DNA from: an uncultured Acidobacteriaceae bacterium
GTDB taxonomy: Bacteria; Acidobacteriota; Terriglobia; Terriglobales; Acidobacteriaceae
Direction: 5' to 3'
Length of the DNA stretch: 64,000 bases
NCBI GenBank assembly: GCA_963722365.1
Contig: CAVRLM010000009.1
Span: 188,861 to 252,860 of the forward strand
Part shown: positions 1,525 through 63,222 of the stretch, piece by piece
Layout of the letters: every line of letters starts with the position of its first letter
Numbering within the stretch: the first letter of the stretch is position 1
Position numbers and translations under genes: made by a program
The notes under the pieces: generated by a model
Seen by the model: the letters and a program-made list of their open reading frames with translations, nothing else
The model's database searches: none
Told to the model about the DNA's origin: nothing

Positions 1525-2553
1525 CTACTGGACCGGAATCGTCAGTTCTTTTGCCTTAGGTCCGGACCAGTCCGCGCTGAAGCGGTGAAACCCGAACTGG
1601 GTGATGCGCCGAGATACCGAGTTCACCCACGCGTCAACCTGCATGGAGTTCATATTCCAGTTGTCTCCGCCGGAGCCGCCGGCGAATGTGTCAGAGAGTG
1701 TTATGGTCTTGATCTGGTCGACGGTTACTGGTCGGTTAAGGAGGACCTCAGCCCCATGGGTGCTTCCATCCGCCCATCTCTGGCCGTGATTGACATTCGG
1801 CTCAGATTGCGTCGTGCCGTCAGAGAAATGAATCGTGATATTCAGATTGTCATTTCCTCCACGGAGGTCGTCGTCTCCGGTCCAGAACGTGAAGACCAGC
1901 TTGCTCACCTGGTTCTCTGCGGGACAACTCACATCCGGCCTCGCCGGAATCGAAAGGTTCGGGTTACTACCTGTGAAGCGATGGAATCCGAACGAGGCGA
2001 TGGGCGCACCGGAAACGTTATTTCCCATCGCGCTCGCCTGGAACTCCGCCATATCCCAGTTGTCTTCCGATTTCACACCTTGCGCCGCGTAGATCGGGGC
2101 AAGCGCCGGGCCCGCCGGAGTGGCCAATGCGCCAACTCCTGTAGCAGAAGGAGGGGTGAACCCGCCCCCCGCTAAGTGGACCAGCCCAATTGACTTGATC
2201 TGGTTCGGCGCGACCGGCCGTTTCAGTGGAACGGTCACGAAATTCGTGCTGTTGTTTCCCCAATTTGCGCCGCGGTTCACATTGTTTGAAACCTCCATCG
2301 TGCCGTCGGCGAAGTGTATCTCTACGTTCAGGTTGTTCTGCCCACCCCGAAGATCATCGTTTCCGGTCCGGAACCGCAGTTGCAGTTGGCTGACCGTGCA
2401 TCCTGCGCTCAAAATCGTGGTGCGCTGGGGATGGAGCAAGCCCGTCGGCTTCGTCGCTTGCCCGTAAACTGTGCTTCCCGTCCAAAGCCAGCAAGTGATC
2501 ACAACCACTCCTTTAATTACCCAGTTATATCTGCTGCAATTCTTTAAGTTCAT
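1525..2553 (-). CDS. Secreted protein of unknown function built from two tandem copies of an uncharacterised ~135-150 aa domain
   Basis: N-terminal hydrophobic signal-like segment (VIKGVVVITCWLWTGSTVYGQ). Two copies share the pattern C..L.F.TG(N/D)DDLRGG.(N/D)NLN(V/I).IHF.DGT ... RPV...QIK.I.L ... DNW(D/N)M ... FGFHRF (aa ~51-199 and ~209-342). Confidence 0.7.
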   Translation of the reverse strand: MNLKNCSRYNWVIKGVVVITCWLWTGSTVYGQATKPTGLLHPQRTTILSAGCTVSQLQLRFRTGNDDLRGGQNNLNVEIHFADGTMEVSNNVNRGANWGNNSTNFVTVPLKRPVAPNQIKSIGLVHLAGGGFTPPSATGVGALATPAGPALAPIYAAQGVKSEDNWDMAEFQASAMGNNVSGAPIASFGFHRFTGSNPNLSIPARPDVSCPAENQVSKLVFTFWTGDDDLRGGNDNLNITIHFSDGTTQSEPNVNHGQRWADGSTHGAEVLLNRPVTVDQIKTITLSDTFAGGSGGDNWNMNSMQVDAWVNSVSRRITQFGFHRFSADWSGPKAKELTIPVQ

Positions 2554-5983: not shown

Positions 5984-6562
5984 GTGAAGAAATTCGTCAC
6001 AATGTTGTTCGGATTGGCCGGCTTCGGTTTGCCGTTTGCAGTTGTCGATGCGAACGCCGCCTGGGCCCAGACCCAGAACTCTGCGCAACCCACGGTTAAG
6101 CTGCAATCCCTGAATATTAAGCCTGGCCTTTGGGAGAGCACGCGAACGATCAAGAGGACAGGTGAGATGCCGATCCCTACTGAAATGCTGAACCGATTGA
6201 CTCCAGAGCAGCGCGCCAGGATGCAGGAAAGAATGAAGGCGAACGCAGGGGGGCACACGAGCACCGAAACCGAGAAGCACTGTGTCACCAGGGAGGACTT
6301 GGAGCGAGACAGATTGAAGATCGCGGAAGCAAAGGAATGCACCACGACCGTGGTCAATTCCACAACCACAAATCTCAGGGGAAAAATTGTCTGCGAGACA
6401 GCGGGCATGCATGCAACCGGCATGCTTGAACTGGTAGCGGTTGATTCAGAACATGTTAATGGCTCATACCATTCGACAGTGGACGGTAACGATCACACCA
6501 TGAACCTGGAAGGCACGTGGACCTCGAAGTGGCTGGGTTCTACCTGCGGCGATGTGAAATAA
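5984..6562 (+). CDS. Secreted DUF3617-like protein
   Basis: Signal peptide MKKFVTMLFGLAGFGLPFAVVDANAAWAQ. The PGLWE motif early in the mature part and conserved Cys positions match my recollection of DUF3617. Confidence 0.7.
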   Translation: MKKFVTMLFGLAGFGLPFAVVDANAAWAQTQNSAQPTVKLQSLNIKPGLWESTRTIKRTGEMPIPTEMLNRLTPEQRARMQERMKANAGGHTSTETEKHCVTREDLERDRLKIAEAKECTTTVVNSTTTNLRGKIVCETAGMHATGMLELVAVDSEHVNGSYHSTVDGNDHTMNLEGTWTSKWLGSTCGDVK

Positions 6563-6573
6563 GGAGAAGAGGC

Positions 6574-7206
6574 TTGGAGAGGGCCAGCTATGGTTTCGGT
6601 GTCGGCGCCCAGAGGAAACGGGGTGGGCGATTCGGCTTCTTCGGACTGATTGCCAGCGTGTTCGTGGTCTATGCCGTGGTTGCGGGGCTGGATCCTTGGG
6701 CCTTGCACATCGGTGAGCGCTGGACGCCCCTGTTGTATTGGACGGGGACCGGCAAACTAGTTACGAAGCACGGAACCCACCCTCTGATGGTTACTCTCTT
6801 CCCCGCGTCGCACTTCTCCCGCCTTCGTCTTGATGGCTTGCGACCAACAGGAGGCATACACGGCAAGGCGTGGCTGTGTACTTCACGGGGCGTGACGCAA
6901 TCCTTCGACCTGAACGGCACGATCTATGGCAAATGGCGGAGCACCGACGGTGCCTTGATGGGTTTTCGCCTGCTTGAGCGGCGAACTGCCCGCGATGCGC
7001 TCGTCGGTGACAGCTATAGAGGCTACTTCGATCTCTTCGGATATTGGCATGGCCCGCAACTCACAATGGACGACCGCGGAGAATGGTCCGAACGGCTCCG
7101 CTCCGGATTGAGAGTCGAGCAGGCGTCCGTGACCCTTAACTGGGGAGACGAGGCCGATTTCAATGCTGCATGCGCCAGCATGGCCAATCCGGCGTCGGGG
7201 CGATAG
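6574..7206 (+). CDS. Hypothetical single-pass membrane protein
   Basis: Same frame as ORF 6517..7206. I prefer the TTG at 6574, which has AGGAG 7 nt upstream and lies just after the stop of the previous gene (6560-6562). TM segment FGFFGLIASVFVVYAVVAGL. No recognisable domain. Confidence 0.55.
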   Translation: MERASYGFGVGAQRKRGGRFGFFGLIASVFVVYAVVAGLDPWALHIGERWTPLLYWTGTGKLVTKHGTHPLMVTLFPASHFSRLRLDGLRPTGGIHGKAWLCTSRGVTQSFDLNGTIYGKWRSTDGALMGFRLLERRTARDALVGDSYRGYFDLFGYWHGPQLTMDDRGEWSERLRSGLRVEQASVTLNWGDEADFNAACASMANPASGR

Positions 7207-14300: not shown

Positions 14301-15272
14301 ATGACTGAGAAAAAGGGTCTCTTGAGCAGCGGATTGAGTATGGTCTTACGCAACAAGCGCTATATCGTCTGGTTCTATGTGCTGAACCTTTTTCTTGCCC
14401 TGTTCGGCACGGTCGCCTTTGTGAATCAGGCCGGATCCATCCTCGACCACAGCCTGCAGTCGCAGCGCCTGGTGCATGGCTTCTCGCTCGGAGTGTTTAT
14501 TGAGATGCTCGCGCGTCCAGAATTCGGACCGACCATGGCCTCCCGCGGGCCAGCCATGTTCTTTGCCCTGCTTTTTATGATCGCGACCGCGCTCTTCCTG
14601 CCCGGCGTATTTCAGGGATACGCATCCACCTACCGCCTGCCGCGGGAAGATTTCTTCCGCGCCTGCGGAAGAAATCTCTGGCGCTTCATCCGCCTGCTGA
14701 TCATTTCAGGCATCGTGATGATCCTTGTCACGATTGCGCTGTTTAGCCTGCATGGATTTCTTGAGCGCAAGGCCGGCGAAAGCACCAACGAACTTCTGCT
14801 GCCCGAGGTACGCTTCATCGGTCTCGGCGTGATCTTCCTGATCATGACGGTTTTCCGCATCTGGTTCGATTTAGCCGAGGCAGACATTGTTTTGGAAGAT
14901 CAGCGTGCGGTGCGCAAGTCGATTCTCGCAGGCTTGCGACACACGTGGCGCGGCTTGGCTCGTTTGCTCGGCAGCTACGTTGTCACTGCCATCGTAGCGA
15001 CTCTCATTCTGGCCGCAGGGCTGCTGTTCTGGGAGCATTTCGTGCCCTCCGCCAGCGTAGGGGGCGCATTTCTAATGGCGCAATTCACTCTCCTGCTGCT
15101 TCTGATACCGCGTTTTTGGCAGCGTGGCATCGCGGTTTCCTACTGGCAGCAGTACATGCTGATGCCGGTCGTTGTCGTCGAGCCAGTCGAACCTGCACCG
15201 GTTCCAGTTGCCGCGATCCCCGAAGCTTCGCCGGTAATTCCGAATTTGCCTCCCGCCCCGCAAGGAGCTTGA
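14301..15272 (+). CDS. Hypothetical polytopic membrane protein
   Basis: 323 aa with several long hydrophobic segments and a Pro-rich C-terminus. No domain recognised. Confidence 0.6.
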   Translation: MTEKKGLLSSGLSMVLRNKRYIVWFYVLNLFLALFGTVAFVNQAGSILDHSLQSQRLVHGFSLGVFIEMLARPEFGPTMASRGPAMFFALLFMIATALFLPGVFQGYASTYRLPREDFFRACGRNLWRFIRLLIISGIVMILVTIALFSLHGFLERKAGESTNELLLPEVRFIGLGVIFLIMTVFRIWFDLAEADIVLEDQRAVRKSILAGLRHTWRGLARLLGSYVVTAIVATLILAAGLLFWEHFVPSASVGGAFLMAQFTLLLLLIPRFWQRGIAVSYWQQYMLMPVVVVEPVEPAPVPVAAIPEASPVIPNLPPAPQGA

Positions 15273-15849: not shown

Positions 15850-18800
15850 TTAGTTCACGGCGAAGATCAAATCGTCGTGATCGTCATAGGCTCCCGTGCT
15901 GCACGAAGACGCGCTTCCCTGGTATCGGAAGTTCGCCCTCACAGCCTGCAACGCGCCGGTTGGCAACGTGTACGTCGCGGACAGCGGCTGCGCTCCTCCC
16001 GCCGGTGGCACGATCGTTCCAATGAACACCCACATCGGACTGTTCGCATTGGCTGCGTAGTACAGATCGAGAGAGTCAGACGATCCAGTACTCCAAGCCC
16101 ATACCGTCGCGGTGACTTTCACGGTTTGCCCGTGCGTCATCGTTCCGCCTCCCGTGGATGCGACCATGATGCGATCATTGGATTCATCGGAGTGGAATGT
16201 TCCCGAGGAACCGTCTGCGCACGAGCCATTGATGTTGTTGGGTTGATTCGGCTCCGCGCCTCCCGACATCGTGTCGCGTCCCAGCAGCAGCGTCGTTCCT
16301 GAGTCGCAGGACGAACCGGCCGTCGCGCATTTCGGAGCCTTCAGAGTCGTATCGAAGACCGCCGTTTGCGCGCCGCCTGTGGAGCTCACCGTTAGCGTGA
16401 TGTTGGCCGTGGCCGTGGTTGTGCCCGACGTCCCAGTTACAGTAACCGTGCTCGTCCCGGTCGTGGCGGTTGGTGATGCGGTGAACGTTAGGGTTGAAGT
16501 TGCACTGCCGTTCGCGGGCGGCGTTACCGGATTCGGAGCAAATCCTGCCGTCACTCCCGAGGGCAAGCCCGAGACACTCAGCGTTGTGGCCGAGTTGAAG
16601 CCGTTCTGACTGGTGACTGTGATCGTGCTGTTGGCGGTTGAGCCCTGCGTCACGCCGACCGAACTCGGAGCGGCAGAGACGGTGAAGCCCGGGGTTCCTG
16701 CGCCCACGGCGAAAATCAGATCGTCGTGATCGTTGTACGCTCCCGTCGTGCAAGAGGACGCGCTTCCCTGGTAACGGAACTGCGCCCGCACCGCCTGCAG
16801 CGTCCCGCTGGGCAACGTGTAGTTTGCCGAAAGCGTTTGCGCTCCCGCTGCTGTCGGCGTCAGCGTTGCGATCAACACCCACGTCGGACTGCTCGCGTTC
16901 GCGGCATAGTACAAGTCAAGATGGTCTGAAGTGAATCCGCTGTACGCCCAGACCGTTGCACTCACCTTGACCGTCTTACCGGCAGCTAGACCGCTGCCGT
17001 CTGTAGTCGCAATCACCAGCCGATCATTCGACTCATCGGAGTGGTATGTTCCCGATGTGCCGTCAGCGCAGCTGCTGTTGATCGTGTTTGGCTGATTCGG
17101 CTCGGACCCACCCGACAGCGTATCGCGGCCAAGCAGCAGCGATGGACCTGAATCGCATCCCGACGCCGCATTTACGCACTTCGGAGCCTTCAGCGTCGAA
17201 TCGTAAACGGCTGTCTGTAATCCGACGGACGAATTGACCGTAAGAGCGATGGTTGTGCTGTGTGACAACGTGCCGGAAGTCCCCGTTACTGTGACAGTGG
17301 CTGCCCCGGTAGTTGCGGTGGCGGAAGCCGTCAGTGTCAGCGTGGAAGTAGCGCTGCCATTGGCCGGAGGAGTTACCGGATTCGTCGAAAACGCTGCAGT
17401 CACTCCGCTTGGCAGGCCGGTCGCGCTGAGTGTGGTCGCTGAACTGAAGCTGTTCTGACTGGTGATGGTGACCGTGCTCGTTCCGTTCCCTCCTTGAGTC
17501 ACGGTTACCGACGACGGCGACGCACCAATCGTAAAGTTCGGCTGCGCCGTCGCATTTACGGTCAAGGCGAGCGTCGTGGAATGAGTCGTCGAACCCGACG
17601 TCCCCGTGATAGTCACGGTCGAACTGCCCGTCGTAGCCGAAGATGATGCCGTTAAGGTCAGCACGGATGTTCCGCTTCCATTCGCCGGTGGCGTCACCGG
17701 ATTCGTCGAGAACGCCGCCGTCACACCGCTGGGCAGGCCTGAGGCACTCAGCGTGGTCGCCGAATTAAATCCGTTCAAACTCGTGATCGTGATCGTGCTG
17801 GTTCCGTTGCCACCTTGTGTCACGGTCACCGACGATGGCGCAGCTCCGATCGTGAAGTCGGGCGTCGACGTCGTGCCGCAGCCCGGGAATTTGAAATTCG
17901 CAATGCGCGTATTCCAGTTAAAGCTTCCCGTTGTTTTCATGTACTCTTCGGTGAACCAGAAAGTACAGTCATCGACGGGATCGACCTGCATGGCACTGTA
18001 GTCGCCCCACCGTGACAGGCTCCCGGTTTGCGAGCCGCTGCCGCTGACGATACTCACCTCCGATTCCAGCGTGCTCGCCGGATCTGTCGGCACGCGTCCC
18101 GCGAAGCGGATCGACGGTGAAACCGTGCTGCTCGCCAGGCTGTAGCCCAATGCCAAGTCTCCCGCCTGGTCCATTGCGACCGAACCCATCCAGCGGTAGT
18201 TGGAATCCGGAGCAAACGTACTCTGCTGCGCAACTACCGGCGTGCCCGAGGGATTCTGGATCTCGTACCAGCGAACTCCGCCTCCCGAACCCGCAACCAC
18301 CGAATGATTCACCACCAACGACTCGTGCGTCCCGAAGTTGCGGTACGCCAACCGGTACATCAGCCGGTCAGCCAGTGAATCAAGTTTTTGCGTAGTGCTC
18401 GGCTGTGGAACGCAGGTGCCGCCTGCACACAGCGGGCTGAAGGCTGCGACGTTAATCACAGTCGGTCCCGTAAACGTGGAGTTCGCCGTGTTCACAAAGT
18501 CCACGTGGAACTTGTACAAGTTCAAAGTATTCGTGCCGAAATACATCAAGTAGTTTGGAGAACCTGCCGGCGGCGCGGTAGTGCCGTCAATATCCGCAGG
18601 CAGCAAACCTCCAACCGAAGTGCCCTGCTGGAAGCAAACCTGGGTGGCGGCTGTGCCAGCGAGCATGGCCGCGCGATTGTAAGCGCAAGCATCTGCCCCA
18701 ACGAACGTCGTGCCGCCCGCGAACATGTTGAAGGTCTCGTAGTAAGCGTCTGACCACACGCTCATCTTTGGATAATCATCGAAATTCGAATATTGGAAGG

Positions 18801-19440
18801 AGTACCGGTTGTAAGTTCCAGTCGCGTCCGACGTGGTCGACACCGCAATGCACTGCAAGTAAGGAGTCGTCGAAACCGAGAACTGGCTGAAAATCCAGCG
18901 TTGCGCCATCTTGTCGTAGATCACGATCGGGTCGCCATCATTATTAGTCTGGCAACCTCCGCCAAATCCCGACCACAACGTGTTGCCCGCGGTCGGCCCC
19001 GCAATCAACGCGCCGGTCGATTTGCTGAAAATTGCAAACGAAGTATTCACCCACTGCACGTATTGCGTTGCGCCCACCGTGCCTTCCGTATCTGGCGGTG
19101 CGCCGGTCACGCTGAACCCATATTGTCCGTTTCCCAAGCCTTCAAAACTCAATGCTACCGGCGGCGTCGGCGCGGCCACCGTCCCGACTTGAATCACCGG
19201 ATCCTCTTGCTGCTCGGCCAGCCCGGGAGGCAGCGGAATTTGTCTCATGGGCTCGACCGGACGCCTTTCCAGCGATGGCGGAGGTGCATGTTTGATCATT
19301 TCCGACAGTGGCGGGGAAACGTCGTGATGAACATCGCGGCGCACGGTAGTCGGTCCCGATTGGGCAAATAGAGAAACGGTGAGTAGCAACGTCATCGCCA
19401 GCGCGAAGCGCCTGGCGATCGCAGGGGTGGGAGTCGACAT
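15850..19440 (-). CDS. Large secreted surface protein: N-terminal ~520 aa propeller-like domain, three Ig-like repeats and two lectin/pre-peptidase-like C-terminal modules
   Basis: Signal peptide MSTPTPAIARRFALAMTLLLTVSLFAQ. Three repeats of ...FTIGA.PSSVTVTQGGNGTSTITITS.N.F.SATTLSA.GLPSGVTAAFSTNPVTPPANGS.TS.LTLTAS... Two repeats of LKAPKC...SCDSG..LLLGRDT.SGG.EPNQPN.IN.SCADG.SGT.HSDESNDR...LDLYYAANA.SP.WV...LQAVRA.FRYQGSASSC.TGAY.DHDDLIFAV. Confidence 0.85.
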   Translation of the reverse strand: MSTPTPAIARRFALAMTLLLTVSLFAQSGPTTVRRDVHHDVSPPLSEMIKHAPPPSLERRPVEPMRQIPLPPGLAEQQEDPVIQVGTVAAPTPPVALSFEGLGNGQYGFSVTGAPPDTEGTVGATQYVQWVNTSFAIFSKSTGALIAGPTAGNTLWSGFGGGCQTNNDGDPIVIYDKMAQRWIFSQFSVSTTPYLQCIAVSTTSDATGTYNRYSFQYSNFDDYPKMSVWSDAYYETFNMFAGGTTFVGADACAYNRAAMLAGTAATQVCFQQGTSVGGLLPADIDGTTAPPAGSPNYLMYFGTNTLNLYKFHVDFVNTANSTFTGPTVINVAAFSPLCAGGTCVPQPSTTQKLDSLADRLMYRLAYRNFGTHESLVVNHSVVAGSGGGVRWYEIQNPSGTPVVAQQSTFAPDSNYRWMGSVAMDQAGDLALGYSLASSTVSPSIRFAGRVPTDPASTLESEVSIVSGSGSQTGSLSRWGDYSAMQVDPVDDCTFWFTEEYMKTTGSFNWNTRIANFKFPGCGTTSTPDFTIGAAPSSVTVTQGGNGTSTITITSLNGFNSATTLSASGLPSGVTAAFSTNPVTPPANGSGTSVLTLTASSSATTGSSTVTITGTSGSTTHSTTLALTVNATAQPNFTIGASPSSVTVTQGGNGTSTVTITSQNSFSSATTLSATGLPSGVTAAFSTNPVTPPANGSATSTLTLTASATATTGAATVTVTGTSGTLSHSTTIALTVNSSVGLQTAVYDSTLKAPKCVNAASGCDSGPSLLLGRDTLSGGSEPNQPNTINSSCADGTSGTYHSDESNDRLVIATTDGSGLAAGKTVKVSATVWAYSGFTSDHLDLYYAANASSPTWVLIATLTPTAAGAQTLSANYTLPSGTLQAVRAQFRYQGSASSCTTGAYNDHDDLIFAVGAGTPGFTVSAAPSSVGVTQGSTANSTITVTSQNGFNSATTLSVSGLPSGVTAGFAPNPVTPPANGSATSTLTFTASPTATTGTSTVTVTGTSGTTTATANITLTVSSTGGAQTAVFDTTLKAPKCATAGSSCDSGTTLLLGRDTMSGGAEPNQPNNINGSCADGSSGTFHSDESNDRIMVASTGGGTMTHGQTVKVTATVWAWSTGSSDSLDLYYAANANSPMWVFIGTIVPPAGGAQPLSATYTLPTGALQAVRANFRYQGSASSCSTGAYDDHDDLIFAVN
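15853..17545. repeat. Tandem ~850-nt duplication of an [Ig-like + lectin-like] module inside the surface-protein gene
   Basis: Module 2 is 15853-16704 (lectin-like 15853-16371, Ig-like 16372-16704). Module 1 is 16705-~17545. A further Ig-like copy lies at ~17546-17870. The DNA copies are clearly alignable by eye but diverged. Confidence 0.8.
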
Positions 19441-26814: not shown

Positions 26815-28367
26815 CTAGAACGACAGCCGCGCGCTCAACTGAATCTGTCTTCCAGGAGTTGTCGCCTCGGTGATCGTCCCAAACTGCGGCGTGTTCACGA
26901 AGCGATCTGGCGTTCCCAGATTCGTATGGTTCAGAGCGTTGAAGAATTCTCCGCGGAACTGGAAAACCGCTCGCTCGGTTAGATTGAAGTCGCGGACTAA
27001 CGCCAGATCCAGCGTCTGCAGTCCCGGACCATACACCGAGTTCCGTCCCACATCGCCAAAGGTGTAAGCCGCAGGCGCCGCAAACGCGGCCCGGTTCATC
27101 CAACTGGAAGCAGCGCGCGTTCCCGACGGGAAGATTGGCTCTCCGGTCAAATTCGCGCGGATCGGATTCTCTCCCAACACTGTGCCCGAATTCGCAGTGT
27201 CTCCAAATACCGAAACCGTGAACGGAAATCCAGTCTGGATTTGGTAAACCGTCGAAACATGCCAATCTTTGCTGATCGCTCGTACAAAGCTCGAACGATC
27301 CCACGCGGGAATGTCATAGACCACGCTCGCGGCAAAACGATGTCGAATGTCGCACGCCGGACCGCGCTCCGCCTCCAGATCACTGTTGTTCTGCGGAATC
27401 GATGACTCAAACATCGGCGAGCGGAAATCCGGAGCGTCGCTCAGATTCTTCGCCCATGTGTAGTTCGCGAGAAAGGTCAGCCCTCCTGTGTAACGCCGGC
27501 GAACGTTGATGTAGCCCGCGTCATACCAACTCTGCGCCGTATTCTCGAGCAGATTGATCGTGCTGACCGGAAAGCAAATCTGATCCGTTGGGCATCCCGT
27601 TACAGGCGGAACGTAAGTCACGCCATCCGGCAACACCGAACCCGCCACGAAACTGATCTTGGGAAATGGACGCCGCGGTCCAATCGCTCCCGCTCCCGGA
27701 GGCGCGTTGTTGATCAGGTGCGCGCGCTGCAAGTGCACGCCGTGAGAGCCGAGATATCCGATCTCGAGCGTCGTCTGATGTCCAAGACTCTTCTCTACTG
27801 AAGCGCTCCACTGCTCGATGTATTGCGACGGCGCATGTGGATCCATTGCCGTGAAGCTCACGGTTGTCTGCCCTAGCACCGCAGGACCGAAGTTCAGATG
27901 GCTTGCCAGGATCGGAACGGATGGCGTGAAGTTGTCGCTCTGCTGCGTCTCCGCTCGCGGACAGCAACGGGCTCAATGACCTCGCCCACCGATGAGTCGG
28001 TAGGATGCAGTAACGGAGCGATGCCTCCGACCTCGAGAACGTTCTTCACCGAAGCGACCTTCAAACTGAGGTTCACGACCATCTGCTGCGCCACCTCAAG
28101 GCGCAGACTTTGGACGAGGGGAGAAAATCCAGGAGCCTCTACTTTGAGTTCGTAATCTCCCGGTTGGAGCCCAGTGATCTCAAAACTTCCCTGCTCGCTG
28201 CTCGTCACATGGCGGACTGCCTGCGTACTAGAAGAAGTGAGAACAACGTCCGCGCCGGCAAAGGCTTTGCCTTGCGGATCGGTGATGGTACCGCCTAGAC
28301 CTGCGTAGTTGATTTGGCAAAATGCTGAAAGAGAAACTAGGCAAAGAACGAATAGCAGATGGCGCAA
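26815..28367 (-). pseudogene. TonB-dependent receptor (carboxypeptidase-regulatory-like N-domain type) remnant with large internal deletion
   Basis: ORF 27894..28367 holds the signal peptide plus the CarboxypepD_reg-like domain (GTITDPQGKAFAGADVVLTS...FEITGLQPGDYELKVEAPGF...) and ends out of frame after ...SVGEVIEPVAV. ORF 26815..27879 holds only the last ~380 aa of a barrel, ending ...QLSARLSF; its frame extends upstream to ~27960. Plug and most of the barrel are missing. Confidence 0.75.
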
Positions 28368-49618: not shown

Positions 49619-50626
49619 GTGGTTGGACTTTCAAAATTGAGCGCATCGACCACCATTAACGGGAAGGAAGTCTTCGATCTGCTGCGAGACGATCTCGTGG
49701 CACTGGAAGACGAGTTCGGCCGCGACACCGTCTCGGGCGTTCAGGCCATCACCGAGATTGGTGAGTACCTGCGCAACGGTGGCGGCAAGAGAATTCGTCC
49801 TGCCCTGCTGCTGCTTTCCGCGAAACTGCTTGACTATCAGGGGCAAGGCGCCGTCCGCTTAGGGGCGGTCGTAGAGATCATTCACACCGCGACCCTCGTA
49901 CACGACGACATTATTGACGAGGCCAAGACGCGCCGGGGCCGTCCCGCGGCCAATACGCAGTGGGGCAATTCGAAATGCGTGCTGGCCGGCGACTGGCTGT
50001 ACATGCAGGCCTTCAAGATCGCGGTGCAGGAGCGTAACTTTCGAATTCTCGACACGCTGATCGAACTCACCCAGCAGATGGTTGAGGGCGAACTGCTGCA
50101 AATGGAAAAGTTGGGCAAGCTGATCACGCTCGACGAGCACTTCGACCTCATCTTCCGCAAGACCGCCTGCCTGTTCTCAGTCTGCATGCGCCTGGGAGCA
50201 ATTCTGGGCGGCGCGACGGCCGAGCAGGAAGAGGCTCTAGGCCGTTACGGACACAACCTGGGGATGGCTTTTCAGATTGTCGATGATGTGCTCGATCTGA
50301 CTGCAACGGAAGATGTGCTGGGCAAGCCCGTCGCCAGCGATCTGCGCGAGGGCAAGGCCACCATGGCGGTCATCCATGCCATTGAACGCTGCACCGCCGA
50401 AGAGCGGACCAAGATCGAGACGGTGTTGCAGCACGGCGCTTTCAACGGCGTGACCCATGCGGAGATCCTGGAAATTCTGCAGCTCTACGGCTCCCTGGAA
50501 GCTGCCACGGCGATGGCCGTGCAATACGCGGAATCCGCCTGTAAGTCCATTTGCACCTTCCCCGACACGGAGATTAAGCGTGCCCTGCTCTGGGCGCCCG
50601 AGTTTGTGGTCGCGCGAGAGAAATAG
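49619..50626 (+). CDS. Polyprenyl diphosphate synthase (IspB/octaprenyl-type)
   Basis: GTG start. First and second Asp-rich motifs LVHDDIIDE and QIVDDVLD. Confidence 0.88.
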   Translation: MVGLSKLSASTTINGKEVFDLLRDDLVALEDEFGRDTVSGVQAITEIGEYLRNGGGKRIRPALLLLSAKLLDYQGQGAVRLGAVVEIIHTATLVHDDIIDEAKTRRGRPAANTQWGNSKCVLAGDWLYMQAFKIAVQERNFRILDTLIELTQQMVEGELLQMEKLGKLITLDEHFDLIFRKTACLFSVCMRLGAILGGATAEQEEALGRYGHNLGMAFQIVDDVLDLTATEDVLGKPVASDLREGKATMAVIHAIERCTAEERTKIETVLQHGAFNGVTHAEILEILQLYGSLEAATAMAVQYAESACKSICTFPDTEIKRALLWAPEFVVAREK

Positions 50627-50911
50627 GGACCTGCGGCGGAAATACCTGCCTCGCGCCCTGTGAGCCTAAGCACAGAAGCCCCCTCTAAATAAAATTGACC
50701 GCCGTCACCATCAGCCGTGACCGATGTTACAGACTATTTTTCTCGTCCGTTTAAGAATGCGGGCAGTTGCTGGGAATGTCCGCCAGAGCGGAAGGCTAAC
50801 GAGACGCACTGGCATGTGACGAGGCGCGAGAATCGCGACCTCAATCTCCCCCCGGCACCTGAGAAAGGCAGGTCGTCGAGGGTCCTGTCCGCTGCGGACG
50901 AACCATCAACG

Positions 50912-51015
50912 AAGACGGCGGCTTCAGTCGAAGCTTTAGACGAAAGGCGCCTGGGTTTTTCGACGCGCCGGCCCGGACAGGGTCGGAAAAGACTTCGAGT
51001 GCAAGCCGCTGTCTT
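50912..51015 (+). ncRNA. Candidate structured RNA or palindromic element: 104-nt hairpin formed by a 26-nt imperfect inverted repeat
   Basis: 50912-50937 pairs with 51015-50988: 25 pairs (one G-U), one G/G mismatch, two 1-nt bulges. The 50-nt interior holds smaller hairpins (GGCGC...GCGCC, CCC-ggaca-GGG). No credible ORF on either strand. Confidence 0.3.
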
Positions 51016-51070
51016 GCTCACCCTGAACGAGGATAGTCCTCCTGACAGACTCGCTCCTCGTGCAACAATA

Positions 51071-51110
51071 GCCGGGCGTCGGTCCATCGGACCCGCCCGG
51101 CTTTGTTTAT
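51071..51110 (+). terminator. Intrinsic terminator
   Basis: GCCGGGCG-tc-GGTCC-atc-GGACC-CGCCCGGC followed by TTTGTTTAT. It lies 445 nt after the polyprenyl synthase stop and 70 nt before the DedA start. Confidence 0.7.
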
Positions 51111-51180
51111 ACTGAACCCTTTACTGGATTCGCGGAATCAAAGCTGTGCACGCGCAGAGCCCGGTAAACTCTAGCTGCCT

Positions 51181-52152
51181 ATGAATGATCTACTCTCCAT
51201 GATGGCGCGCCACGGGTATGCCTTGACGTTCGTCTTGCTGTTTGCGGAAGCCATTGGCCTTCCGTTCCCCGCAGCGATCGCCCTGGTGGCGGCCGGCGCC
51301 GCCGTCGCGTCGCATACCCTCGCAGGCGGCGGGGTTGTGCTGGCGGCCATGGTCGCCCTCATGATCGGCGACACATTGCAGTTTTGGCTCGGGCGCTACA
51401 CCGGATGGGCTCTGCTGGGATTGCTTTGCCGCCTGTCGATGAATCCGGAAACCTGCATGCTGCGGTCCGCCGAATCGTTTTATAAACGCGGTAAGAAAAC
51501 CCTGCTCGTGGCCAAGTTCATTCCCGGTATTAACACCATGGCCGCGCCTCTGGCGGGCAGCATGAAAATGCGCTTCGGCCAATTCTTCCGCCTCGACCTG
51601 GCTGGAGCGCTGCTCTATACCGTGACCTACCTTCTGGTGGGTTACGTCTCCCGCGATTTTCTGGCAGCGACGTTGAACGGCTTCCATGCGGCCGGCCGCG
51701 CCATGGAAGTCATCATCATTGCCGTGTTGATCGCATACTCGGTCTACCGCGTCTCGCAGTTCTATCGCTACAGCAAGTACCGGATCATGCCACGGATCCA
51801 GGTGCAGGAACTCGCAGCGCGTATCGCGGCGGGCGACGGCGACCGGTTGCAAATCGTCGACGTGCGCAGCCACGGTTATTACGATATCGGCGCCGAGCGC
51901 ATCAAAGGCTCGATTCGAATAGAGCCCAACAACCTCGACGAGGAGCTCAAGAATCTGTCCAAAGACAAGGACATTTACTTGTACTGTACTTGAACACGCG
52001 AAGCGACTAGCGCCCGGGTGGCGCATCTACTGCAGGAAAGAGGCTTCAACACGTTCGTGATCGTCGGAGGACTGACCGCCTGGCTCAAGGCCGGAGGTCC
52101 GCTGGAATCGATTCCCAAGAACGATCTGGTCAAGCTCCCGACCTTCTCGTAG
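51181..52152 (+). CDS. DedA-family membrane protein fused to a rhodanese domain; contains an in-frame TGA (51991-51993) inside the rhodanese active-site loop (Sec candidate or nonsense mutation)
   Basis: ORF 51181..51993 holds the DedA/SNARE-associated core (LLFAEAIGLPFP...) and the N-terminal half of a rhodanese domain (...LQIVDVRSHGYYD...IKGSIRI...DIYLYCT*). The same frame continues TREATSARVAHLLQERGFNTFVIVGGLTAWLKAGGPLE... to TAG 52150-52152. Confidence 0.6.
52010..52024 (+). promoter_or_regulatory. SECIS-like hairpin 16 nt downstream of the in-frame UGA
   Basis: GCGCC-CGGGU-GGCGC: a 5-bp GC stem whose apical loop contains GGU. Confidence 0.3.
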
Positions 52153-52163
52153 GCGCTTCCATC

Positions 52164-57866: not shown

Positions 57867-58490
57867 ATGACTGCACGCCTCTCCTCACTGGTCCTGTTAG
57901 CCGCGCTGCTGATCGTTCCTGCCACCGCGAAGGACAAGAAGAAAGTTACTCTGCCCGAATATGTTTTGAGAGCCAGCACCGTGCGAGTAGTGATCAACCC
58001 CGACGCCGGCGAGCCGATTGACAATCCCATGGCCAACAGCACCGCGCGCGAGAATGTGGAGAGGGCGTTGATGAATTGGGGCCGCTTTCAACTGGCTCCC
58101 GACGGTGGGGAATCCGATCTGCTGATCGCGGTCCGTACCGGGTCCGGCAAGATGATGCGCCCAACCATCAAGGGCGGGCCGATCGACAATCGTCCCGGCG
58201 AGGCCCAGACCACCGATGACAGCATTCGAATTGGCGGACACCAGGGGCATCCTCCGACGAATGATCCCGGCCTGGGCCCTCAAGGCAGCCCCCGCATGGG
58301 CAATGAGGTCGGCCCGTCCGAGGATATGTTTGAGGTATATCGCGGCGGTACGGTCGATCCGCTGGATGCGCCCGCCGTCTGGCGCTATACCGCGAAGGAC
58401 TGCCTGCGCGCACCCCAGGTTTCTGCCGTCGAGGAATTCCGCAAAGCGATCGCGGAAGCGGAAAAGCCGCAACCACCCAAGAAACCCTGA
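57867..58490 (+). CDS. Secreted hypothetical protein
   Basis: Signal peptide MTARLSSLVLLAALLIVPATA. No recognisable domain. Confidence 0.55.
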   Translation: MTARLSSLVLLAALLIVPATAKDKKKVTLPEYVLRASTVRVVINPDAGEPIDNPMANSTARENVERALMNWGRFQLAPDGGESDLLIAVRTGSGKMMRPTIKGGPIDNRPGEAQTTDDSIRIGGHQGHPPTNDPGLGPQGSPRMGNEVGPSEDMFEVYRGGTVDPLDAPAVWRYTAKDCLRAPQVSAVEEFRKAIAEAEKPQPPKKP

Positions 58491-61335: not shown

Positions 61336-62241
61336 CTACTTCGCGCGCGGATGTGTCTGATCGTAGACCTGCAGCACGTGCTTCATCGAAAGCTGCGTAT
61401 AACGCTGCGTTGTGGCCAAACGCTCGTGACCCAGCAGTTCCTGGATGGCACGAAGGTCGGCGCCTTCTTCCAGCATGTGAGTGCCGAAAGCATGGCGCAA
61501 CGTGTGTGGATGCACGTCTGGTGAAAGACCTTTGGCGACCGCAATCTTTTTGATGATGCGCCCCACGCTGCGTGCGGTCAGCCGCCCGCCGCGTTGATTG
61601 ATCAGCAGCGCGGCAGTGTTCTTGCGAGTTTCCGCCAGCATAGCTTGCCGTGCCGGAAGATAGGCCGCCAGCGCGCTCTTCGCCGATCCACCAAAGGGAA
61701 CGTATCGCTCCTTCTTCCCCTTGCCACGAATCAGGATCGCCTCCGCACTCAGCCGGATGTCGTCAAGATTGATTCCGGTGAGTTCCGAGTTGCGAATGCC
61801 ACACCCATAGAGCAGTTCGAGCATCAACCGGTCGCGCTCTGGGAAGGCCGCTGTCTCCGGCATTTGCCCGTCGAGCACAGCATTCATCTCTTCGATCGTC
61901 GGGACGCGTGGAAGTTTCTTCGGCAGCCGCGGCGTCGCCACAAGTTTCGCAGGATTCTGTTCGACCACACCCTCCCGTGCCAGCCACCGATACAGCGACC
62001 GCACCGCCGCCAACGAACGCGCCACGGATGTCTTACCCAATCCCTTTTCGTAGAGCTGCGATAGAAATCCGCGAATCGAGATGTGGTCGATCGACTTCCA
62101 TCCCCGCGAACCAGCATAGGCAGCGAAGTTTGCCAGATCGCCGCTGTAAGCCTTGATCGTGTGCGGCGAAGAATTGCGCTCTCTCAGGTGGCGAAGAAAG
62201 TCGGCTACGGCCTTCTCCACGATTGTGCTGCTCTTCGTCAT
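61336..62241 (-). CDS. xerC: Tyrosine recombinase XerC-like
   Basis: ...[40 protein letters not shown]...HPRAK. N-terminal SAM-like core-binding domain. Confidence 0.85.
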
Positions 62242-63222
62242 TTACCTCGCCTTCGCCCTCGGGTGATGCTTCTGATACACACTCCGCAGCCGATCGAGCG
62301 CCAGATGCGTATAGACCTGCGTCGTCGATATGTCAGAGTGGCCCAGAATGGTCTGCACCGTGCGCAAATCGGCCCCGTTCTCCACCATGTGCGTGGCGCA
62401 TGAATGCCGCAACATGTGCGGCGATGCATGACGTCCCGAAGCGGCCGAAGCTTCCCCCACCATCTGCCAGACCCTCTGCCGCGTCAACTTACGTCCCCCG
62501 CGAGCAATAAACAGCTGCGGGGAGTTTTTGGTTGAGACTATCGATACTCTCGCGGCATTCTTCGCGCGCTTGGCCACCCGCAGCCCGGCGAGCACGGGCC
62601 GCCCTTGCTCCAGATACTCCGAGAGCGCGTCCTGCGCCGGCTTGCCCAGCGGCACAATGCGCTCCTTGTCACCCTTCCCGCGCACCAACATGTATCCGGA
62701 TTCCAACTTCAAATCCTCAAGCGTAGCGTTCACCATCTCCGAGACGCGCAGCGCCCCCGCATACAACAATTCAAGCATCGCCCGATCGCGAATCGCCAGG
62801 GCGGTTGCATCCTTCTTCCCACGAGTCCCTGCGCGGGCCGCCGGAGCCGCCAACGTCGATTCCACTTCATCGCGCGCCAGCGACTTCGGCAATACCTTCC
62901 ACTGCCGCGGCGACTCAATATTCAGAGTCGGATCATGATCGATTCGCTTGTCGAGCAATAGGTATCGGTACAAATGGCGCAGCGCCGAAAGCTTCCGCCC
63001 CACACTCCTCCCATCGACCTGATGCGAAAAAAGCTGCTGCAGAAATTCCCGCACATCGTTCCGCCGCGCCGTCAACAGCAAGCGCTTATGCTTCTCAAGA
63101 AACTCGGCGAATTGCAGGATGTCAGTCGTGTAAGCGCTGATGGAAAGTCGCGCCAGCCCCTTCTCGATCCGCAGATAATCAAGAAAGCCCGAAAGCACGC
63201 GCGAGTTCGCCTCAGCAGCCAT
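62242..63222 (-). CDS. xerD: Tyrosine recombinase XerD-like
   Basis: FLDYLRIEKGLARLSISAYTTDILQF... and ...HMLRHSCATHMVENGADLRTVQTILGHSDISTTQVYTHLALDRLRSVYQKHHPRA. Its stop TAA directly abuts the xerC ATG. Confidence 0.85.
   Translation of the reverse strand: MAAEANSRVLSGFLDYLRIEKGLARLSISAYTTDILQFAEFLEKHKRLLLTARRNDVREFLQQLFSHQVDGRSVGRKLSALRHLYRYLLLDKRIDHDPTLNIESPRQWKVLPKSLARDEVESTLAAPAARAGTRGKKDATALAIRDRAMLELLYAGALRVSEMVNATLEDLKLESGYMLVRGKGDKERIVPLGKPAQDALSEYLEQGRPVLAGLRVAKRAKNAARVSIVSTKNSPQLFIARGGRKLTRQRVWQMVGEASAASGRHASPHMLRHSCATHMVENGADLRTVQTILGHSDISTTQVYTHLALDRLRSVYQKHHPRAKAR

Follow-up and report, generated by a model that had tools for sequence, protein, structure and literature searches.

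Selenocysteine-containing rhodaneses and a DedA-rhodanese gene of Acidobacteriota

Rhodaneses with a CxU motif are listed in reviews as a selenoprotein family, and members of the NCBIfam family NF041203 ('rhodanese_LYCAU rhodanese-related (seleno)protein') are stand-alone proteins of about 126-150 aa with a signal-like hydrophobic segment at the N-terminus. A selenocysteine (Sec) rhodanese fused to an integral membrane module is known from TsoB ('rhodanese form 5', NF045694; rhodanese/DsbD fusion-like). Bacterial selenocysteine insertion sequence (SECIS) elements have an apical loop that is small and includes a G (PMC1088965), which lies at loop position 1 or 2, and some of these elements lack a lower stem (PMC13582414); in the SelB/SECIS system of Escherichia coli fdhF, an in-frame UGA is closely followed by a stem-loop inside the coding sequence with a G (and GU) in its small apical loop. 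Here we describe a gene in a 64-kb stretch of a contig from an uncultured Acidobacteriaceae bacterium (CAVRLM010000009.1; hereafter the window, meaning the whole stretch analyzed) that encodes a DedA/VTT membrane domain followed by a rhodanese domain and that carries an in-frame TGA within the latter (Table 1). We consider it very probable that this UGA is recoded as selenocysteine in a single 323-residue DedA-rhodanese polypeptide, with a 15-nt hairpin serving as a minimal SECIS.

The gene reads ...KDKDIYLYCT*TREATSARVAHLLQERGFNTFVIVGGLTAWLKAGG... around the TGA, and the frame remains open for 52 codons beyond it. This description, given in the original prediction from the sequence, holds in every detail, and so does the claim that the downstream peptide is the second half of a rhodanese fold: the Pfam Rhodanese match runs across the TGA. 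PDB rhodanese structures also match this domain. Gene callers end the open reading frame (ORF) at 51993, giving 270 aa, and the truncation that had been anticipated is found in all the public gene calls listed (NCBI, JGI), under the names 'VTT domain-containing protein' and 'membrane protein DedA'.

The best NCBIfam match of the full-length product is to NF041203 (E = 3.9e-22), with residues 199-309 aligned to positions 16-124 of the 126 profile positions, at a score of 78.3 bits that is below the curated cut-off of 115. The representative of that family, TKB26178.1 (...IVLYCAUPNEYTSARLA...), aligns with the rhodanese domain at 31% identity (E = 3e-17) and places its U on the TGA column without a gap. 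Both belong to the same subfamily with the signature ...LYC-x-U-(PNE/TRE)-x-TSAR..., which reads LYCAU there and LYCT-UGA here, whereas the rhodanese of the window is the C-terminal part of a 323-aa DedA/VTT protein. We interpret the protein as a variant of the known CxU rhodanese selenoproteins with a new architecture; it is widespread in soil Acidobacteria.

The N-terminal domain resembles the DedA/VTT proteins (PF09335; E. coli DedA/YqjA; the undecaprenyl-phosphate transporter UptA) in scoring above the Pfam VTT threshold and in weak similarity to the DedA and UptA models of NCBIfam, and the structure model of a Cys orthologue (see below) is helical over most of residues 2-202. However, its scores lie far under the cut-offs of the UptA and E. 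coli-type DedA equivalogs (43.4 vs. 300, 38.3 vs. 250 and 47 vs. 236 bits) and, therefore, no specific transport function can be transferred. TsoB is similar in that a Sec rhodanese is joined to a membrane module, but its membrane part is of the DsbD type and its UxxxxU motif has two Sec residues, and the protein described here has no match to NF045694 at E<=0.01. A DedA or VTT fusion selenoprotein is mentioned neither in the reviews, the deep-Sep paper or the supplements searched, nor in anything our literature searches returned, and the catalogues searched contain no other DedA/VTT-domain selenoprotein.

Conservation of the in-frame TGA and of the downstream reading frame

A search of a 5.8-billion-protein collection recovered homologues of two classes. 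The first comprises dozens of proteins (81-97% identity) whose gene calls are exactly 270 aa long, with ...YLYCT as their last residues. Those of the second class (hereafter Cys forms; e.g., P0002-P0005, P0014 and P0017, annotated as 'membrane protein DedA.../rhodanese-related sulfurtransferase') are 323 aa long and 71-77% identical, and share both domains and the gene neighborhood, but have TGC in place of TGA and a hairpin that is weakened or lacks the loop G. They read YCTC[ATV]R[DE][AG]TSA; the motif YC(T/S)CPNEATSA, given in the original prediction for this subfamily, is found in distant full-length family members. The expectation that the TGA replaces the second Cys of the motif was borne out, as the column is Cys in every full-length homologue and TGA in the relatives examined at the DNA level.

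The gene occurs in 575 GTDB species. Among 80 species-level genome loci, nearly all from metagenome-assembled genomes of Acidobacteriota (Ca. Sulfotelmatobacter/Terriglobia), the codon is TGA in 78, TGC in two and TAA or TAG in none, and a second scan, of metagenomes with a Cys-form query in search of Cys-form controls, gave TGA in 80 of 80 loci; the Cys-form DNAs were obtained by exact-protein look-ups instead. In total, the column is TGA in the window and in 158 related loci and TGC in nine distinct syntenic orthologues; TAA and TAG never occur. The contigs of the Cys forms carry a gene order around the gene identical to that of the window; the UGA and Cys forms share a syntenic slot and are orthologues with different residues encoded at this codon. 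A recent nonsense mutation, a pseudogene or a sequencing error confined to one genome is refuted, as independently assembled sequences from 78 species-level genomes, 80 metagenome contigs and five distant relatives (see below) all carry the TGA, and we give it practically no chance.

The reading frame after the TGA is exactly 52 codons long in all complete loci except one, where it is 53. Synonymous changes account for 75% of the codon differences downstream of the TGA compared to 66% in the 52 codons upstream, and the two alternative frames downstream are open in only 1/80 and 17/80 loci. No disruptive mutations or indels were found downstream of the TGA across about 160 sequences; downstream decay in relatives, which the original prediction had named as a sign of a pseudogene, is not seen, and the pattern of substitution indicates that the 52-codon extension evolves under purifying selection.

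These data bear on the reading that the TGA is a real stop, in which case a DedA protein of 270 residues, ending in a rhodanese stump, would be the functional product, and conservation of what follows would have another cause, such as a 3' untranslated element or a separately translated peptide. All the public gene calls listed do end at the TGA, and an ORF of 44 codons in the frame of the DedA-rhodanese gene begins at a GTG at 52018. However, the 52 downstream codons evolve as coding sequence in the frame of the upstream part and encode the missing half of the rhodanese, including its GG..AW block, while half a rhodanese domain cannot fold alone. Moreover, the stop is never TAA or TAG, and the syntenic orthologues are continuous with Cys at the column. 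We thus regard a real stop as extremely unlikely.

To gauge how far this arrangement extends across the family, a full HMMER scan with a Cys orthologue as query was run on 1.84 billion cluster representatives (50% clustering), which yielded 7,553 relatives. Among the best 150 of these, at least 31 (30-58% identity) terminate right at ...[LIVMF][YFV]C-x, and an uninterrupted protein with YC-x-C-PNE-x-[TS]-[SA] is found in at least 57. About one-third of the clusters sampled from the DedA-rhodanese family stop at this position. We obtained the DNA of five divergent truncated relatives (32-45% protein identity), and all five have TGA at the site. Each is followed by an open extension of 40-58 codons that encodes PNEA[ST]SARAA...GG..AW, and by a hairpin with a GCGCC-type core at the same offset, with a stem of 5-8 bp and a CGKGY loop; one C-to-U change in these hairpins preserves a G-U pair.

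A hairpin constrained in the UGA forms

The hairpin downstream of the UGA, GCGCC-CGGGU-GGCGC, had already been pointed out in the original prediction, and its presence and its conservation in UGA forms were confirmed. It starts 16 nt after the UGA, its loop starts 21 nt after the UGA, and it is embedded in codons +6..+11 (S-A-R-V-A-H). The predicted stability is -9.1 kcal/mol in the UGA forms vs. -1.4 to -6.2 kcal/mol in the five Cys forms folded.

Codon choice around the site is strongly restricted. The third-position entropy averages 1.23 bits per codon over the gene (308 codons, 77 sequences), whereas codons +6..+10 (AGC GCC CGG GTG GCG), which cover the hairpin except its last base, together reach 0.24 bits; no other five-codon window of the gene is as low. 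Only six degenerate codons never vary (ACT -1, AGC +6, GCC +7, GTG +9, GCG +10 and CTG +13), and all of them lie between -1 and +13 of the UGA. Within the 15-nt hairpin there is one variable position (a loop base) in 140 UGA forms vs. eight in nine Cys forms, although overall third-position divergence is comparable (0.40 and 0.48, respectively). All 140 distinct UGA forms use ACT for the Thr immediately before the site, for which the nine Cys forms use a mix of ACC, ACA, ACT and ACG. A complete stem together with a loop G at position 1 or 2, the published mark of bacterial SECIS elements, is present in 142/142 distinct UGA forms (the G being at position 2) vs. 0/9 Cys forms. By these measures, the hairpin is specifically constrained in UGA forms and has decayed in Cys forms. 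The recurrence of TGA, extension and hairpin in 158 related loci is far beyond chance, and we regard the codon as a true, conserved site of UGA recoding that is accompanied by a UGA-linked hairpin and located at the active-site Cys column.

The same evidence speaks to a read-through that does not depend on a SECIS, in which a suppressor allo-tRNA or a near-cognate tRNA would insert Ser, Ala, Trp or Cys and the hairpin would act as a pause or stimulator. Acidobacterial allo-tRNAs with 8/4 or 9/3 structures may be nonsense suppressors (PMC5389517), and the Sec machinery was not found in the window, both of which would suit such a mechanism. However, the site is the putative catalytic-Cys column, where Ser, Ala or Trp would inactivate a rhodanese; in addition, the position, size and loop G of the hairpin match SECIS features and the known Sec rhodanese family. 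Of the 36 other genes in the window, 13 end in TGA, and a general suppressor would read through these as well. The same codon is the final stop of several orthologues of the DedA-rhodanese gene, and TGA is therefore an ordinary stop in this organism that is recoded only at 51991-51993. On balance, SECIS-independent read-through is highly improbable.

Position in the active site and points against selenocysteine insertion

The original prediction placed the TGA at the catalytic Cys of the rhodanese loop, and structural alignment agrees with this only in part. In an ungapped alignment to domain 1 of 6mxv, residue 271 falls on the catalytic Cys (C-GGGFR-S vs. U-TREAT-S). In an AlphaFold2 model (pLDDT 74) computed for a Cys orthologue, residues 264-269 form a strand and 270-275 a loop, and a helix begins at 276. 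Cys269 may be the resolving or partner cysteine of Sec271.

Several observations count against recoding to Sec at a catalytic position by way of a SECIS. A gapped HMMER alignment to domain 2 of 6mxv, with a two-residue gap, puts Cys269 on the catalytic Cys instead, and the AlphaFold2 model is compatible with either 269 or 271 as the canonical catalytic position, although the U-x4-T-S cradle fits. The hairpin resembles that of fdhF in its placement and loop, but its stem is short (5 bp, with a pentaloop) and has neither a bulged U nor a lower helix; the lower helix in the minimum free energy fold of the window sequence was considered as an extended lower stem and rejected, as it is not conserved. 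The covariance-model match that would have supported the original prediction was not obtained: the SECIS families of Rfam 15 gave no match to 51900-52160 at the gathering score or even at E<=10. The fold energy over 60 nt is unremarkable (z = -0.07). RNAalifold on 70 distinct UGA forms recovered only the invariant 5-bp stem and pentaloop, with no compensatory pairs; covariation is lacking because the stem never changes, and support for the hairpin thus comes from synonymous-site constraint and not from pair covariation. The 142 UGA forms compared with the nine Cys forms for stem and loop G are phylogenetically related, and a Fisher p-value for this comparison overstates their independence. Lastly, selA, selB, selD and tRNA-Sec were found neither in the 64-kb window (Pfam scan of 40 ORFs, ARAGORN and Rfam) nor in the flanks fetched, and ARAGORN detected no tRNA-Sec in the 80 genome loci. 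The hairpin is, at this stage, a candidate SECIS known from sequence.

Selenocysteine use in Acidobacteriota and the identity of the inserted residue

Sec is used in this phylum. Four selenoproteins in three families were reported for Acidobacteria (PMC1794560), and in Occallatibacter riparius, also of this phylum, Sec is present in FdhA and in AhpD-like and deiodinase-like proteins (PMC12013277). Literature searches for Sulfotelmatobacter together with selenocysteine returned nothing.

Separately, we noted that FdhA of O. riparius DSM 25168 (P0271) is recorded as an N-terminal 180-aa fragment, annotated as 'hypothetical protein', that ends in ...ENQARI just before the canonical Sec, and that 119 of the 120 closest database relatives of this acidobacterial-type N-terminus stop there too. 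These records indicate that acidobacterial FdhA selenoproteins are commonly truncated in public annotation. FdhA was considered as a tie between Sec use and the present lineage and was set aside, given that the named fragments come from Occallatibacter, 'Acidobacteria bacterium AB60' and Bryobacterales and not from Sulfotelmatobacter.

The inserted residue could also be cysteine, if the UGA were decoded in a SECIS-dependent manner by a tRNA(Sec)-like tRNA (SelC*/tRNA-ReC) with SelB or a SelB paralogue, either always or under selenium scarcity. Such tRNAs read UGA as Cys given a downstream SECIS (PMC5389517; PMC13582414), Cys would yield an active protein since the column is Cys in the orthologues, and the conservation of the UGA, the hairpin and the frame fits this reading equally well. 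On the other hand, selC* has been reported from Firmicutes, Thermodesulfobacteria, Nitrospirae and Proteobacteria, not from Acidobacteria (PMC5389517), and no such tRNA was found in the window. It is also hard to explain why a costly UGA and hairpin would be kept over many lineages just to insert Cys, as TGC works in the orthologues. We consider recoding to cysteine very unlikely, and conclude that Sec insertion directed by a minimal SECIS is the most likely fate of the UGA in the DedA-rhodanese gene.

A model for the function of the protein follows from this reading. The polypeptide would begin with a multi-helix DedA/VTT membrane domain, continue with a long connecting helix and end in the rhodanese domain, the last predicted to be cytoplasmic by the positive-inside rule applied to ...YRVSQFYRYSKYRIMPR, which follows the last membrane helix. 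When the ribosome reaches the UGA, the 15-nt G-C hairpin would recruit SelB carrying Sec-tRNA(Sec), so that the UGA would not act as a stop and selenocysteine would be inserted co-translationally. Sec271 would then lie at the start of the rhodanese active-site cradle (U-x4-T-S, followed by a helix), the usual place of the catalytic cysteine, and could act as the nucleophile that accepts and hands on sulfane sulfur (or selenium). Alternatively, Sec271 may form a selenenyl-sulfide in its cycle, with the invariant Cys269 of the C-x-U motif, two residues before it, as partner.

Gene layout, neighborhood and other features of the window

The features of the gene are given in Table 1. Its neighborhood, in the order TatD, YajQ/DUF520, polyprenyl synthase, DedA-rhodanese gene, MFS transporter, CYTH, SecA and AMP-binding/acyltransferase, is composed of unrelated housekeeping genes, and the operon context gives no functional clue. 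In one Cys-form lineage, transposase genes of the IS200/IS605 type (Y1_Tnp) and the IS1595 type (DDE) interrupt the neighborhood downstream of the DedA-rhodanese gene (L161 12565-13140 and 15635-16597; L162 3459-4034 and 6528-7490). A scan of the window for TGA read-through ORFs and for TGA plus hairpin combinations found no further convincing selenoprotein gene besides the DedA-rhodanese gene; a hit at 58488 was rejected as a second selenoprotein because it terminates an ORF overlapping, in a different frame, the 5' end of the AMP-binding gene.

Table 1. Features of the DedA-rhodanese gene in the window, with domain scores and remarks.
Feature	Coordinates	Strand	Remarks
Full DedA(VTT)-rhodanese gene	51181..52152	+	323 sense codons including one UGA, plus TAG stop; start ATG 51181
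VTT/DedA membrane domain, residues 29-155	51265..51645	+	Pfam PF09335, 45.3 bits vs. cut-off 33.9
Rhodanese domain, residues 209-303, spans UGA	51805..52089	+	Pfam PF00581, 47.3 bits vs. cut-off 22.2
Cys269 codon TGT, first residue of C-x-U motif	51985..51987	+	Cys invariant in all homologues
Thr270 codon ACT, immediately 5' of UGA	51988..51990	+	Synonymous position frozen in UGA forms
In-frame UGA, predicted selenocysteine codon, residue 271	51991..51993	+	Putative catalytic-Cys column of rhodanese loop
SECIS-like hairpin	52010..52024	+	Stem 52010-52014 / 52020-52024, 5 G-C pairs; loop 52015-52019 CGGGU
True stop codon TAG	52150..52152	+	Orthologues end here too, with TAG, TAA or TGA

Upstream of the gene, between the polyprenyl synthase gene (49619-50626) and the start codon, lies a conserved structured RNA of about 350 nt (50766-51112, forward strand) that is 73-99% identical in 111 loci. 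An alignment of 50 sequences supports 67 base pairs in 13 helices, with double-sided changes in 30 pairs vs. 12.1 +/- 2.1 in shuffles (0/500 reach the observed value) and 96% of cells paired vs. 34-44% when the partners are slid by 1-3 columns. At its 3' end there is a covarying terminator stem (about 51072-51103) followed by UUUGUUU. The RNA has no Rfam family match. An 'ORF' at 50717-51115 was rejected as coding sequence, being conserved on both strands and with frame jumps, and gene callers either mistake the RNA for an ORF of 97-132 aa or extend the N-terminus of the DedA product into it (P0111, P0117). It also occurs 5' of some Cys-form genes and is therefore not tied to Sec; it may be either an independent non-coding RNA or a leader.

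Elsewhere in the window, two adjacent ORFs on the reverse strand in different frames (26815-27879 and 27894-28367) resemble opposite ends of a single TonB-dependent-receptor-like outer-membrane protein. The upstream ORF has a CarboxypepD_reg domain, and the downstream ORF matches only positions 517-838 of the 838-position OMP_b-brl_4 profile; about 500 barrel residues appear to be missing, and the pair probably represents a pseudogene with a deletion or a frameshift. Two abutting tyrosine-recombinase genes on the reverse strand (61336-62241 and 62242-63222; 301 and 326 aa), located directly downstream of the large AMP-binding/PP-binding/acyltransferase gene, encode Phage_integrase and SAM-like N-terminal domains and could be XerC/XerD-like or mark the boundary of a mobile element. 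Four ORFs had no Pfam match at E<=1e-4, namely 15850-19440 (-), 14301-15272 (+), 1525-2553 (-) and 6517-7206 (+), of 1196, 323, 342 and 229 aa, respectively; the first is the largest gene-like ORF of the window without annotation.

Implications for the selenoproteome of Acidobacteria and for the DedA/VTT superfamily

E. coli DedA has been linked to selenite handling, a literature lead that is not evidence about the DedA-rhodanese protein of the window. A more far-reaching proposal is that the protein represents a family-wide selenoprotein of the membrane, not catalogued before and the first of the DedA/VTT superfamily, that itself handles chalcogen traffic at the membrane: the DedA module would move selenium or sulfur species and the Sec-rhodanese would capture them as perselenide or persulfide for SelD or for sulfur acceptors. 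We consider this proposal unlikely; if it were true, a selenoprotein would feed the selenium pathway in dominant soil Acidobacteria.

Recoding at this site would mean that annotation is systematically wrong for a protein widespread among the abundant Acidobacteria of peat and soil (Ca. Sulfotelmatobacter/Terriglobia) and that the selenoproteome of the phylum is underestimated. The candidate element is a very small SECIS-like hairpin built on the codons of a conserved S-A-R-x-A motif and, together with the syntenic Cys orthologues in which the hairpin has decayed, it could offer a natural system for studying Sec/Cys interconversion and minimal SelB recognition. The Sec-rhodanese group would gain a membrane-anchored architecture and, if confirmed, the protein would place a selenoprotein within the DedA/VTT superfamily, whose functions are only now being assigned.

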